From NCBI GenBank assembly GCA_963422205.2, contig CAXMWX010000003.1, positions 1-64,000 of the forward strand: a DNA stretch of 64,000 bases, given 5' to 3'. The notes under the pieces are model-generated. The model was not told the origin of the DNA. It was given only the letters and a program-made list of their open reading frames with translations, and did not search any database. Position 1 is the stretch's first letter; every line of letters starts with the position of its first letter. Shown here piece by piece: positions 3 through 4,149 of this stretch. The translations under genes and the position numbers were made by a program. The DNA comes from Gammaproteobacteria bacterium (GTDB taxonomy: Bacteria > Pseudomonadota > Gammaproteobacteria > Eutrophobiales > Eutrophobiaceae).

Positions 3-1328
3 GCTACCCTGGCGCAACTCAAGGCCGAGCTGGATGGCCTGGAAACTGATGCGCGGGACAGGTTGCTACAGGAGGTGTTCGACACCGAGGGCAAGCGGGC
101 GATCGTGCCCTTGATTGACAAGCTGGATGCGCTAAAAGACAGCTATCAAGAGGTGGCCCGTGCCGGGCAATCCAATCTGGTGGATGAGGAGTATGAGCGC
201 TTTTTAGAGAGTGCCTCAGGGCAATGGACGACACTGAAACAGAACATTGGCCAGGTGGGGGTAGTGTTTGCCAATACCCTGCTACCTGTCGTGGGACGGC
301 TGTCATCCGGCGCAGCTATAGCTGCTGGGTGGGTGTCCACCCTCATTGAGCGTTTCCCGATCATTGGCAAGGCCCTTGGCACGATTGGTGTGGCCTTTGC
401 AAGTGTGGGGGCGGTGATGGCGGGATGGACAGCGGGCATCTGGGCTGTCAATGCTGCGATGCTGGCCAACCCCATCGGCTTGGTCATTGCGGGCGTGGCG
501 GGGCTGGGCGCTGTCCTCTATACCCTGCTTAGCCGAGCAGAGCCGGTCAAGACCTTCCTGGGCGGCATGTGGGAGGGCTTCATGGACGGTATCTCACCCG
601 TCCTGAATGCCTTCGGCCAGGTCTTTGGCTGGTTAGGGAGCCTGGCAGGTGGCTTGGCCGAGGCCACGGGCGGCCTGGGCGACTTCTCCAATGCCGGTCG
701 CCTGGTCGGGGAAGTCATCGGTCGGTCTTTTGGCATCCTGGGCACGATTATCGGCCTGCTCTTACGGGCTCTGGCCGGTCTTGGCACCGTGCTCATCGGC
801 GTGGGGAAACTGGTCGGGCGCGCCCTCTGGTTTCCCTTTCAGGCCATTCTCAAAACGGTCGGCCTGCTCTTTCGAGGTGTGGCCGGTTTGGGCAAGGTCA
901 TTATCGGTATTGGCAAGCTGATAGGGAGCGCTTTGTCAGTCCCCTTGAAGGCCGCAGCAGTACCGCTCAAGGCCATCGGCTCGGTCGTCGGGTTCTTCAA
1001 GGGCGGTGAAGATGACGAACAGGCCGCCCCGGGGAAACCGAAGCCGACAGTCAGCATCAAGCCCGTGGCACTGGCCGCCACCGTCGCGGCCGCACCCGTC
1101 GCCGCGCAGCCCGTCGATGTGCCCCTGCCTGCGGTGCCAGCCCCGCAAGCCCGGCAGGTGCCACACACCGATAATCGCCAGCACCACGACCACAGCACCC
1201 ACAGCTACCAACTCACCATTGCTCAACAGCCCGGCGAAGATGCCGCCGCCCTGACCGAGCGCATCCTGACCGAGCTCGAACAGCGCCGGCAACAGAGCCA
1301 GCGGGAAGGACTGCACGATGCCCTCTAG
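3..1328 (+). CDS. Phage tail tape measure protein (5' partial)
   Basis: Frame open from window start; Gly/Ala-rich amphipathic repeats, 'NAAMLANPIGLVIAGVA' motif; lies directly upstream of GpU. Confidence 0.9.
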   Translation, partial: ATLAQLKAELDGLETDARDRLLQEVFDTEGKRAIVPLIDKLDALKDSYQEVARAGQSNLVDEEYERFLESASGQWTTLKQNIGQVGVVFANTLLPVVGRLSSGAAIAAGWVSTLIERFPIIGKALGTIGVAFASVGAVMAGWTAGIWAVNAAMLANPIGLVIAGVAGLGAVLYTLLSRAEPVKTFLGGMWEGFMDGISPVLNAFGQVFGWLGSLAGGLAEATGGLGDFSNAGRLVGEVIGRSFGILGTIIGLLLRALAGLGTVLIGVGKLVGRALWFPFQAILKTVGLLFRGVAGLGKVIIGIGKLIGSALSVPLKAAAVPLKAIGSVVGFFKGGEDDEQAAPGKPKPTVSIKPVALAATVAAAPVAAQPVDVPLPAVPAPQARQVPHTDNRQHHDHSTHSYQLTIAQQPGEDAAALTERILTELEQRRQQSQREGLHDAL

Positions 1329-1740
1329 CTATCTGATGAAACTGGGGGACTATCTGTTCTCTATCGATACGGCCGCCTACCAGCAGCTACAGAAGCGCAG
1401 TACCTACCGCTGGCAAGCACAAGCCCGACTCGGCCGTCTGCCTGCCCAGCAATACCTGGGGCCGGGAGAAGAGACCTTGAGCCTGGAAGGCATCCTCTAT
1501 CCGCACCACAAGGGCGGCCTTGACCAGCTTGAGGCCATGCGTCTTGAAGCAGACAAGGGGCAACCCTTGCTGCTCACCGATGGGATGGGGCACATCTGGC
1601 AGCAATGGGTGATTAGGCAGATAGAGGAGACCCATACTGTGCTGTTTGAGGACGGCACCCCCCGCAAGCTAACGTTCCGCCTGCAACTCACCCGCTACGG
1701 CACGGAAAAGGAGGGCAGCCTTGCGCTACCGAAGCCGTGA
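1318..1740 (+). CDS. Phage tail protein, P2 GpU family
   Basis: 'LMKLGDYLFSIDTAAYQ...RWQAQARLGRLPAQQYLGPGEETLSLEG' GpU signature. Confidence 0.9.
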   Translation: MPSSYLMKLGDYLFSIDTAAYQQLQKRSTYRWQAQARLGRLPAQQYLGPGEETLSLEGILYPHHKGGLDQLEAMRLEADKGQPLLLTDGMGHIWQQWVIRQIEETHTVLFEDGTPRKLTFRLQLTRYGTEKEGSLALPKP

Positions 1741-1927
1741 CGGCGATGTCCTGGATGCCATCTGCCAAGCGCATTATGGCCAGCAGGCCGGGACTGTGGA
1801 AGCCGTGCTCACCGCCAATCCGGGTCTGGCAGGACAAGGCCCCGTGCTGCCTGCCGGAATCGTCATTGTCCTGCCGTCTCTGCCGGCGTCCGACAAGACC
1901 ATGCAAACTATCAGGCTGTGGGATTGA
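1721..1927 (+). CDS. Phage tail protein X (P2 GpX, LysM-like)
   Basis: 'YRSRDGDVLDAIC...VEAVLTANPGLA...IRLWD'; TTG start after GAGG. Confidence 0.9.
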   Translation: MRYRSRDGDVLDAICQAHYGQQAGTVEAVLTANPGLAGQGPVLPAGIVIVLPSLPASDKTMQTIRLWD

Positions 1928-1957
1928 TGTCTGTCTTCCGTCCTCTGTCCTCTGATA

Positions 1958-2929
1958 ATGACCCCCGCCTATAACATCCTCGCCGACCATCAGGACATCA
2001 CATCTGCCATACGGGACAGACTGCTGTCTCTTACACTGACCGATAAGGCCGGTATGAAAAGTGATACGGTAGAACTGCGCCTCGATGATCGGGACGGACA
2101 TGTCGCACTGCCCAGAAAAGGGGCTGAGCTGAACGTCTCCCTCGGCTATGAGCAGGCGCTGGTCAAGATGGGTTTGTATGTGGTGGATGAGCTGGAACTC
2201 AGCTCACCCCCGGCGACAATGGTTATCCGTGCCAAGGCCGCCAATATGCGTGCCAGCCTGAAAGCACACAAGACCCGCGCCTTCGATAAGACGACCTTAG
2301 GCACAGTGGTCAAGACCCTCGCCGCCGAGCATGGCTTGGAAGCCCGGGTGGGCGATGCCCTTGCCGACATGAGCCTTAGCCATCTCGACCAGACCGAAGA
2401 GTCCGACTTGCACCTCTTAACCCGTCTGGCCAGGCAATATGACGCCGTGGCCAAGCCTGCCGGTGGGTACCTCTTGTTCGTGCCCAGGGGCGAAGCCAAA
2501 AGCGCCAGCGGTAAGACCCTGCCGGACATTGCCTTAGGCCCCCACCAGGTAAGCGACTACCGCGTGACCCTGGCCGATAGAGACAAGTATGGGGCCGTGA
2601 TTGCCAAGTGGCATAACACGACCAGCGGTGAACATACCGAGATCAAAACAGGTGAGGGCAAGCCCATCTACACCCTGCGCCACACCTACCCGGATGCCGA
2701 GACTGCCAGCGCCGCTGCCAGGGCCAGGCTGGACACCTTAAACCGAGGCCAGGCAAAGATCAGCCTGACCGTGACCCCCGGCAATCCGTATCTGGCCGCC
2801 GAAGCCAAACTCACCCTGACCGGCTTTCGGGATGGCATCAATGGCCACTGGATAGCGACCCAGGTTGACCATGCACTCAGCAACAATGGCTATGCCACCC
2901 GCGTACAGGCCGAGATACCCAAACGATAA
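1958..2929 (+). CDS. Phage late control D (GpD) baseplate hub protein
   Basis: 'DRLLSLTLTD...SDTVELRLDDRDG', 'DQTEESDLHLLTRLA' motifs; canonical position. Confidence 0.92.
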   Translation: MTPAYNILADHQDITSAIRDRLLSLTLTDKAGMKSDTVELRLDDRDGHVALPRKGAELNVSLGYEQALVKMGLYVVDELELSSPPATMVIRAKAANMRASLKAHKTRAFDKTTLGTVVKTLAAEHGLEARVGDALADMSLSHLDQTEESDLHLLTRLARQYDAVAKPAGGYLLFVPRGEAKSASGKTLPDIALGPHQVSDYRVTLADRDKYGAVIAKWHNTTSGEHTEIKTGEGKPIYTLRHTYPDAETASAAARARLDTLNRGQAKISLTVTPGNPYLAAEAKLTLTGFRDGINGHWIATQVDHALSNNGYATRVQAEIPKR

Positions 2930-2975
2930 GGGAGGGAAGGCACATGACAACATAAACAAGATAGCACAAAGATAA

Positions 2976-3090
2976 AGAGGAGCGACCGGCAAGGTGTTAG
3001 CCCACCCCACCGGCCAGCGAATCACTGATAAGACCAGTGAGCCACCTAAAGCCCCCCTGCCACGTACGCGGCGAGGGGGAGCGTAACAGA
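2976..3090 (+). promoter_or_regulatory. Candidate structured leader RNA upstream of the phage methylase
   Basis: Three hairpins: ccgg/ggtg..cacc/ccgg (2986-3013), tcactg/cagtga (3022-3040), ccccct-gcc..ggc-aggggg (3053-3079). Confidence 0.5.
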
Positions 3091-3222
3091 AAGTAGACAA
3101 GAGGATAAGCTCACATGAACACAACCGCCGAAGCCGTCAAACCCGTTGCCCCCTATGTGGGCGGCAAAATACTACTGGCCAAGACCATCATCAGTCGCAT
3201 TGAGGCCATCCCCCACACCTGC

Positions 3223-3270
3223 TCGGCTCTGGCTTCCTGCTTCGCTCTACCGATGACATCCCTGTCATCG
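3223..3270 (+). repeat. 48-nt palindromic insertion element (in frame)
   Basis: Separates PHTC from YAEPF; ends in perfect hairpin CGATGACA-tccc-TGTCATCG; TCG at both ends. Confidence 0.7.
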
Positions 3271-3291
3271 TATGCTGAACCCTTTATCGGC

Positions 3292-3340
3292 ACCGGTTTT
3301 TGCTGCTGCAAAATCGGCATACCGTACATCCCTGTACATA
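3292..3340 (+). repeat. 49-nt palindromic insertion element (frameshifting)
   Basis: Separates FIG from MGG; hairpins ccggtttttgc/gcaaaatcgg and GTACA-tccc-TGTAC; shares ACATCCCTGT with the first insertion. Confidence 0.7.
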
Positions 3341-4065
3341 ATGGGCGGGATATTCTTAAGACGACCTGAGCGAGCAAAAAGTGAAGTCATCAACGACTAC
3401 AACCGGGAGGTATCGAACTTCTTTCGTATCCTGCAACGCCATTATGTCGCCTTTATGGAGATGATGCGCTTCCAGATCACCACAAGAGCCGAGTTCGAAC
3501 GCTTAACCCGAACAGCCCCTGAGACCCTGACCGACCTGGAACGTGCTGCTCGCTTCCTGTACTTACAGCGCACCGCCTTCAGTGGTAAACCCTCCGGACA
3601 GAATTTTGCTACAGATAAAGTCCACCCCGCCCGCTTTGACATCACCAAGCTGGCGCCCATGCTCGAAGATCTCCATAGCCGCTTAACCCGTGTCGTGATT
3701 GAATGCCTGCCCTACCAGGACTTCATAAGACGCTATGATGGCGATGAGACCCTGTTCTACCTTGACCCACCGTATTACCGCTGTGAACACTACTATGGCA
3801 AAGACCTGTTCCACCGGGACGACTTCGTCACCTTGAGTGAACTGCTGGGCGAGATAAAAGGCCGGTTCATCCTCTCACTGAACGATGTGCCGGAGATAAG
3901 AGAGCTGTTCAAGAGCTTCCACATCGAGGCCATCAAGACCCACTACTCAGTGAATAAAGGCAAACGGAAAGAAGCAGGCGAAGTGCTGATCAGCAACTGA
4001 TTCAGGCCGCATTTAACGGCTATTTAATAACCGATTTTAAGGGCTATTAAACCGGTAATAAATTC

Positions 4066-4149
4066 CTGACTCAAAATGAGCGTTAATCGGCAATAAAATG
4101 CTGACTCAAAATGATTGTTATTTTGTCTCGAAATGAACGTCACGCTACA
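4066..4149. repeat. Putative transposase-binding repeats and terminus of the element's right end
   Basis: CTGACTCAAAATGA at 4066 and 4101, TTGTCTCGAAATGA at 4123, terminal CA at 4148-4149 (TGT on the minus strand). Confidence 0.7.

Follow-up and report, generated by a model that had tools for sequence, protein, structure and literature searches.

Two related 48/49-nt structured repeats, probably mobile, inserted in a prophage Dam methylase gene of a gammaproteobacterium of the family Eutrophobiaceae

Introduction

In-frame repetitive extragenic palindromic (REP) sequences inside genes, including two in a single gene, have been documented for GTAG and CGTC repeats and for the Rickettsia palindromic elements (RPEs), some of which carry a CGTC tag (PMC3733652). 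REPs, which by definition carry a 5' GT[AG]G where the hairpin has its foot, have also been documented inside tnpA-REP genes (PMC6006769), and the TnpA-REP protein of Escherichia coli cleaves single-stranded DNA between C and T (PMC3333891). Here we describe two inserts, named t1 (48 nt, positions 3223..3270) and t2 (49 nt, positions 3292..3340), in a Dam methylase gene of a P2-like prophage. They lie in a stretch of 64,000 nucleotides, hereafter the window (positions 1 to 64,000 of contig CAXMWX010000003.1, assembly GCA_963422205.2), from a gammaproteobacterium of the family Eutrophobiaceae (order Eutrophobiales). t1 and t2 probably represent a mobile repeat family, and it was probably their insertion that inactivated the Dam gene.

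REP sequences are usually species- or genus-specific, and RPEs have a length of about 100–150 bp. The transposases of the IS200/IS605 insertion sequences (ISs) act on subterminal hairpins without causing duplications, and the known palindrome-associated transposable elements (PATEs) are far larger than t1 and t2. MITEs (miniature inverted-repeat transposable elements), such as Correia/NEMIS, ERIC and RUP, have terminal inverted repeats and target duplications. Hairpin-bearing inserts of about 50 nt within coding sequence are known from the bypass element of T4 gene 60 and from the mitochondrial 'byps'.

Results

Two inserts distinguish the window Dam gene from its intact paralog

The prophage gene for a D12-class Dam methylase (3115..4000, plus strand), recognized from open reading frames (ORFs), Pfam PF02086 and a paralog alignment, is distributed over two frames. 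The first 84 aa are encoded by ORF 3115-3369, which then reaches a stop; the remaining methylase is contained in ORF 3272-4000, in the next frame. Window positions 3341-3997 matched PF02086 with 65.7 bits (E 6.9e-18; profile positions 37-252). An intact paralog, the third Dam copy of the genome (G000:C7:1574-2365; 263 aa; approximately 82-84% nucleotide identity to the window copy), gave 98.7 bits (E 5.8e-28) over profile positions 1-252 of 253. In the alignment of the two, exactly two blocks were present in the window only, 3223-3270 (48 nt) and 3292-3340 (49 nt). A first-pass annotation, made from the letters of the window and their ORFs, had proposed that removing both blocks restores the Dam motif, and the paralog, which is without exactly these blocks, bears this out; that the inserted residues might be native to Dam is contradicted by the same gene.

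The EPFIGMGG residues of Dam aligned with a Gly-rich EPxVGxG stretch in the solved Dam/DpnM structures (PDB relatives 7m6b, 2dpm and 2g1p), which we take to be the SAM (S-adenosylmethionine)-binding motif I. The t1 element (plus strand; 74.1 bits with the family covariance model R1) was located between the Cys (TGC) and Tyr (TAT) codons, with a 1-nt ambiguity (T) at its boundary. It adds 16 codons in frame, 7 codons upstream of the Gly-rich motif. Its 3' hairpin (3251..3270) has an 8-bp stem (3251-3258/3263-3270), all paired, and a TCCC loop, as indicated by the fold and by stem covariation in the family. The 21 nt of native Dam sequence between the inserts (YAEPFIG, 3271..3291) matched the paralog at 20 of 21 bases, with one synonymous change. 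The t2 element (plus strand; 75.2 bits with model R2) lies inside the Gly-rich motif, between FIG and MGG, and shifts the frame; Dam reading resumes at 3341 (MGGIFLRR...). A 5' hairpin (3293..3317) with the stem CCGGTTTT/AAAAYCGG and a GC-TSCT-GC top was predicted for t2, for which relatives carry compensatory variants (TTAT/ATAA and others), and likewise a 3' hairpin (3324..3337) with a 5-bp stem and a TCCC loop, for which the stems GTACA, TTACA and CTACA covary in relatives. The 10-mer ACATCCCTGT, shared by both inserts, occurred twice in the window against 0.05 expected, a number reached in 0 of 100 shuffles.

Both inserts thus fold with fully paired hairpins at the positions first reported. 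The accompanying claim that both form 16 stop-free codons in the same register held for t1, four of whose six frames are open, and failed for t2, which is truly 49 nt long and shifts the frame. The suggestion that the T5 run of t2 should be read as T4 found no support either. Five of the seven aligned t2 copies have T5, one has T6 and one is a compensated variant, and the in-frame 48-nt t2 copy in a tail gene (described below) differs in its loop (CC vs CCC), not in the T run. An uninterrupted EPFxGxG motif and a single open frame were absent from the window Dam, and the full D12-class domain match was found in the paralog. Because t2 shifts the frame and hits the Gly-rich motif, the window copy is, as judged from its sequence, a pseudogene.

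The first-pass annotation had named misassembly as a possible objection. Logan contigs from two runs of one study covered positions 2970-3251 and 3225-3996 with 0 differences and contained both inserts, which rules this out. No joined (excised) form of Dam was present in the contigs of these runs, in which rare forms would escape. A 1027-bp Dam cassette with both inserts was found twice at 100% identity (C5:2970-3996 and C9:181355-182381), each time at the end of an otherwise different P2-like prophage.

Further copies in the same genome

One further t1 copy (C14:175070-175118) was located in reverse orientation in a DUF1799 phage gene, close to the 3' end of that gene. In its stem, a G>T change in one arm is compensated by C>A in the other. 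The two closest DUF1799 homologs in a large protein collection, with 65-69% identity, are both shorter by exactly 16 residues at this place, identifying the copy as a 16-residue insertion. A 48-nt t2 copy (C9:172754-172802), also reversed, was found in a tail-protein-I gene, in which PF09684 matched in two stretches. This segment was missing from 8 of 8 aligned close homologs (from 12 matches, 52-62% identity) and likewise from three distant phage tail-protein-I homologs; no closer homolog was found with the same query in 120 genomes of the family. The existence of other copies, as the first-pass annotation had expected, is therefore established within this genome.

The genome held four distinct canonical insertion events (48, 49, 48 and 48 nt), all in prophage genes, three of them exactly 16 codons long, with two on the coding strand and two on the opposite strand. 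The covariance models R1 and R2 detected no other canonical t1 or t2 copy in the 2.99-Mb genome. R1 additionally recovered degenerate t1 relatives beside a repeated autotransporter gene end (five identical matches, 27.7 bits), and R2 one weak t2-like match at C7:637590.

Architecture and covariation

The two elements share one plan, in which a 5' hairpin module with the top GC-(W)TCCT-GC is joined to a 3' hairpin topped by CATCC(A/C)TG through a conserved linker whose last bases are TAC(C). The 5' stem of t2 is fully paired and shows covariation, with TTTT/AAAA replaced by TTAT/ATAA and other variants, and the flanks of the 5' module of t1 are nearly invariant in sequence. Among 65 t1 copies, the 3' stem was free in sequence yet paired, with 7 of 8 pairs changing on both sides. 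Its covariation score of 0.246 compared with 0.072 for shuffled columns (reached in 0 of 500 shuffles) and with at most 0.08 when the partner column was slid. Two mismatches low in the 3' stem (T.C and C.T) were kept by about two thirds of the t1 copies. Conserved loops, linkers and mismatches combined with free stems form the pattern that would be expected if a structure-reading protein selected these sequences. The compensatory stem changes carried by other copies agree with the initial view of t1 and t2 as discrete members of a repeated, structured and precisely inserting family.

Within the 25-nt core of t1, complete linkage was observed between positions 5 and 17 (window 3229 and 3241), which are 12 nt apart. 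Of 121 distinct copies from many taxa, 70 had T..G, 51 had C..T and 0 had other combinations. The linked positions are not Watson-Crick partners, and a third variable position between them was free; two old subfamilies or a non-canonical contact may account for the linkage.

The t1 unit was 48 nt in nearly all copies and t2 was 48 or 49 nt, with shorter, decayed copies also occurring. The proposal that these elements preserve codon length was not upheld: t1 is merely fixed at 48 nt, t2 has either of two lengths, a 47-nt t1 breaks a transposase gene elsewhere, and most copies in relatives are intergenic. Rfam covariance models run against window 3150-3420 on both strands, with E up to 10, gave three chance-level matches, the best with 18.4 bits against a gathering threshold of 43.

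Insertion site and nesting

Comparison of the filled with the empty Dam site revealed no inverted ends and a target duplication of at most a possible single base. Among 81 distinct t1 copies, the preceding base was C in 70 and the following base T in 75, and therefore insertion occurs between C and T. The Dam site, the site in a Mutator transposase gene and sites in two other repeat families all fit this rule, where the empty forms of the two repeat families are presumed to be their consensus sequences. The DUF1799 copy is an exception, lying between C and C. Boundaries of t1 were identical to the base in unrelated targets and taxa.

Copies of t1 were found within the apparent loops of other hairpin repeats, and a t2-like unit occupied the loop of the 3' hairpin of t1 itself (L031, L035). 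Further small structured units were inserted in this same loop at L031, L035 and L087. Several R1 matches spanning about 100 nt are most simply explained by a nested unit. A short target motif in a hairpin loop suggests that insertion may involve single-stranded DNA.

In genome G009 (L180-L185), an element of about 155 nt with long inverted ends and a nested t2-like unit was present in at least 7 copies. Six equal-scoring t2-like matches in G009 had been considered as possible IS ends; the idea was rejected, as they are parts of this inverted-repeat element.

Distribution

Among 24 other genomes of the family, R1 found t1 in 15 (1-52 matches) and R2 found t2 in 13 (1-20 matches). The sole genome of the same genus (92% complete) contained neither. 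Elsewhere in the class, 16 genomes of other families were searched, and two contained t1 and two t2. A scan with a 25-letter t1 pattern over one genome per species returned at least 116 stretches. Almost all of the 80 matches listed were from Gammaproteobacteria, including Pseudomonas/Ectopseudomonas, Shewanella, Sedimenticola, Thiohalomonas, Thalassotalea, Colwelliaceae, Endozoicomonas and sulfur-oxidising symbionts, and two were from odd metagenome-assembled genome (MAG) bins labelled Flavobacteriales and Anaerolineales.

Most copies in relatives were intergenic and chromosomal, often within or beside other palindromic repeats, and t2 was often adjacent to terminator-like hairpins. The t1 pattern was detected in 1 of 2.9 million viral contigs, and neither a BLAST search for t1 in plasmids nor one for both inserts in phage records yielded a match at that sensitivity. 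The normal home of t1 and t2 is for this reason chromosomal intergenic DNA. With respect to neighbouring genes (crude ORF calls), 14 copies were co-oriented, 22 opposed, 11 convergent and 7 divergent. This mixed orientation favours a DNA-level rather than an RNA-level element.

Two observations concern the surroundings of individual copies. The t2 copies at L151, L157, L160, L162, L164, L172, L173 and L178 commonly have ...ATAA as their end, with an A run and then a GC-rich hairpin behind it, which puts them right next to terminator-like structures. Some long ORFs enter t2 and stop in or just past it. In genome G018 (C1:399000-472000), 16 of the 28 t1-like matches of a 2.18-Mb contig were concentrated in a 72-kb segment that carries ordinary housekeeping genes (parC/parE, recQ and others). 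No candidate enzyme was found in this local hot region, which is ordinary chromosome.

Copies inside other genes

Elsewhere, the clear intragenic copies were all in transposase genes. Two Mutator-family transposase genes (L024, L083) carry a 48-nt t1 with the frame kept, adding 16 residues after a conserved CW(V/M)H motif. In a transposase gene with a Mu C-terminal domain (L079), a 47-nt t1 breaks the frame, and an IS91 Y2 transposase gene (L205) is interrupted by t2. A t2 copy beside a Y2 match in G026 had been considered as an IS end and was rejected, the copy being inside the transposase gene. Most simply, insertions into genes would survive only under weak selection.

Prophage setting and other observations

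The Dam gene was placed at the end of a prophage because P2-like tail genes lie upstream of it (3..2929, plus strand: tape-measure end, GpU, tail X and GpD; Pfam PF06995, PF05489 and PF05954). Just past the Dam stop, at window 4040-4125, an AT-rich stretch that precedes the next gene, of the SDR family, contains two occurrences of the 14-mer CTGACTCAAAATGA at a spacing of about 44 nt; this region may be the prophage end or attachment region. A Dam homolog with 74% amino acid identity (L007, G021:C1, approximately 2085-2100, minus strand) is truncated at its 5' end exactly at the Cys-Tyr codons that form the t1 site, with unrelated sequence upstream.

A repeat of about 1.9 kb (G000:C7:337525-339456 and 4-6 further places on C3, C8, C9, C11 and part of C5) comprises the 3' end of an autotransporter-like gene. 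It is followed by a small hairpin cluster in which the degenerate t1-like units (27.7 bits, R1) are accompanied by palindromes of the GTCATTCTGAGCG type, and one copy is found some 180 nt past the Dam cassette of C9. A k-mer count of genome G000 also revealed a 35-nt CRISPR-like repeat ending in ...ATTGAAG with about 162 occurrences, and an over-representation of long poly-C runs.

Discussion

Proposed explanation

We hypothesize that t1 and t2 are two related families of approximately 48-nt non-autonomous mobile DNA repeats that are common in intergenic DNA and would occasionally land in dispensable genes, such as those of prophages and transposases. Two such landings would have struck a single prophage Dam gene, t1 adding 16 codons just before the SAM-binding motif and t2 splitting the Gly-rich loop and the frame. 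We consider it probable that the two are a mobile repeat family and that Dam was inactivated in this way. A more tentative proposal, by analogy with REP and IS200 and with somewhat less than an even chance in our view, is that the elements move as single-stranded DNA, mobilised in trans by a hairpin-recognising HUH/Y1-type enzyme that would cut between C and T; among described chemistries, that of the HUH Y1 enzymes comes nearest. The copies of this genome could be relics collected by prophages in, or arriving from, copy-rich hosts, given that the host chromosome is without other canonical copies and without a Y1 transposase.

Several results weigh against this explanation, most of them concerning the enzyme, and none of the searches identified a mobilising one. 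The genome itself yielded 0 matches to Y1 transposases at 97.97% completeness, so that the RAYT (REP-associated tyrosine transposase) or IS200 partner foreseen in the first-pass annotation was not found at home. Y1 genes above the cut-off occurred in 6 of the 11 family genomes with at least 6 t1 matches and in 7 of the 13 with at most 2. Genome G015 (100% complete; 6 t1 and 2 t2 matches) had no match to Y1, IS110 or Y2. IS110 was present in 5, IS91-Y2 in 3 and GIY-YIG in all 24 of 24 genomes, with no relation to copy number. Of 25 Y1 neighbourhoods in relatives, four held a t1-like match. Only one of these was adjacent, at L142, where it follows the stop of a 305-aa Y1 protein by 13 nt, and in none was the gene flanked on both sides within about 1 kb as in the REPtron layout. 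The canonical 5' GT[AG]G at the hairpin foot is absent from the consensus of 81 copies; CTAC(C) lies 5' of the t1 3' hairpin, placing GTAG 3' on the other strand. Nor was a long element, as expected of a parent IS with t1 ends, found among the 29 non-canonical pattern matches (of 120 with enough flank, 91 were canonical). On the nearly closed contig 1 of G018 (2.18 Mb, dnaA at 1.735 Mb), 20 matches were on the plus and 8 on the minus strand, with plus dominant on both sides of dnaA, the one reference point used in this genome of 3 contigs. This lack of an orientation flip around dnaA gives no support for lagging-strand targeting. Finally, no insertion/excision polymorphism was seen in the assembled contigs of the two runs, and the explanation does not account for the perfect linkage of two non-pairing t1 positions.

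Alternative explanations

The lack of any transposase family that tracks t1 and t2 would fit an origin of the blocks by repair or recombination, through template switching, capture of filler DNA at breaks or gene conversion between hairpin repeats. The elements are often found within or beside other palindromes, where replication stalls, and the identical 1027-bp cassettes on C5 and C9 show that recombination between prophages has taken place. Filler capture, however, would leave ragged ends, and the boundaries are exact to the base in unrelated targets and taxa; the fixed 48-nt unit, the consistent C-T target and the absence of homology among the flanks of different copies also argue against this origin, which we consider unlikely. 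It is more improbable still, in our judgement, that t1 and t2 preferentially strike replicating phage or other mobile DNA, or are used by the host to do so, and are insertional mutagens of invaders rather than neutral junk. All four canonical events in 2.99 Mb fall in two P2-like prophages and none in the remaining chromosome, two of them lie 21 nt apart in one phage gene, and the clear intragenic cases elsewhere point in the same direction, being confined to transposase genes. Purifying selection alone, however, predicts survival only in dispensable genes, and the prophages may have come from copy-rich hosts. The copies in relatives are moreover mostly intergenic and chromosomal, with a single viral contig among 2.9 million carrying the t1 pattern and no phage record matched by BLAST.

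A role in expression is very improbable, whether the inserts are pictured as micro-introns that can be removed, as elements bypassed by the ribosome like that of T4 gene 60, or as a switch turning the methylase reversibly on and off. In its favour, three of the four insertions keep the frame and four of the six t1 frames are open; a ribosome slipping by +1 at the T5 run of t2 would return to the Dam frame, and precise excision is in principle possible for HUH-type elements. Yet copies occur in genes in both orientations, which a strand-specific RNA signal could not tolerate, and most lie outside genes. No stop follows a take-off codon, and landing at the nearest matched GGC codon would delete two residues of the motif; the bypass reading was rejected on these grounds, with no pair of take-off and landing sites that restores the protein. 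There was also no Rfam match, no joined form in the contigs of the two runs and no cognate enzyme in the genome, and read-through of t2 would still leave the Gly-rich SAM loop divided by 16 residues. The micro-introns and the switch, both raised in the first-pass annotation, are further disfavoured by the state of this Dam copy, an apparent pseudogene with an intact paralog elsewhere. An assembly or sequencing artefact is hardly credible. The repeated Dam cassette, 100% identical over 1027 bp, is of a kind prone to mis-joining, but the independent contigs of two runs reproduce both inserts without a difference, and related copies with compensatory changes occur in other genes and genomes.

Comparison with described systems

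As a probably mobile repeat family, t1 and t2 resemble REPs and BIMEs (bacterial interspersed mosaic elements) in being short, high-copy, mostly intergenic hairpins with covarying stems, without inverted ends or target duplication, that cluster, nest and occasionally lie in frame inside genes, twice in one gene. The cleavage preference of TnpA-REP also matches the insertion site of t1. Unlike REPs, they have no 5' GT[AG]G tag, are bipartite (two hairpin modules and a linker) with a fixed 48-nt length, and have in t1 a 25-nt core that is nearly invariant across orders; no REPtron was seen for them, and their copy number is not correlated with Y1 genes. The parallel to RPEs drawn in the first-pass annotation is apt as a description of how the elements work, both being palindromic repeats that lie in frame in protein-coding genes and add a peptide segment. 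It concerns behaviour, with no claim of sequence likeness. RPEs are in addition longer and tied to Rickettsia, whereas insertions of t1 and t2 are found in prophage and transposase genes, one of them breaking the frame of Dam.

With IS200/IS605 and PATEs, t1 and t2 share asymmetric ends, subterminal imperfect hairpins, the lack of inverted repeats and duplications, and a short specific target, and a single-strand mechanism of this type would explain insertion into hairpin loops. They differ in that no full-length parent with t1 ends was found, no TnpA is present in the genome itself and no orientation flip was observed around dnaA in G018. MITEs are likewise small non-autonomous repeats in or beside genes, but here the two ends, TCGG... 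and ...TCG(T), do not form an inverted repeat, and the duplication is at most 1 nt. The T4 gene 60 bypass element and the byps are similar to t1 and t2 as hairpin-bearing inserts of about the same size in coding sequence.

A literature search by t1 sequence words (both strands) and keywords found no description of the family; the published consensus figures (24 GTAG and 4 CGTC families) and the supplements of PMC3733652 fell outside this comparison, and an earlier listing under another name is possible. The family thus appears to be new, in keeping with the first-pass suggestion of an undescribed system. The phenomenon is not, as in-frame intragenic REPs and double inserts are already in print (PMC3733652, PMC6006769).

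Significance

A far-reaching extension would see in t1 and t2 a superfamily, spread across the Gammaproteobacteria, of the smallest discrete mobile DNA units known (48 nt). Such units would consist of two hairpin modules in which the loops and the linker, not the stems, are conserved, and would insert between C and T in single-stranded hairpin loops, including those of each other. Their enzyme would be none of RAYT in cis, IS110, IS91 or GIY-YIG, and a bias for replicating mobile DNA (prophages and ISs) would make them natural mutagens of invaders. We give this combined proposal a small chance of being correct.

With a repeat family this widespread that follows neither RAYT/IS200 nor IS110 nor IS91 genes, the question arises by what enzyme it is moved, a puzzle already raised for CGTC-tagged REPs (PMC3733652). 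For the study of such elements, t1 and t2 provide clean pairs of filled and empty sites from which a target rule (C-T, hairpin loops) can be read. In annotation, they account for frameshifts and for short inserts of 16 residues in genes of prophages and transposases, and the window Dam is best marked as a pseudogene. More generally, a unit of 48 nt can act as a discrete element that inserts precisely, and can do so in different orders of bacteria.

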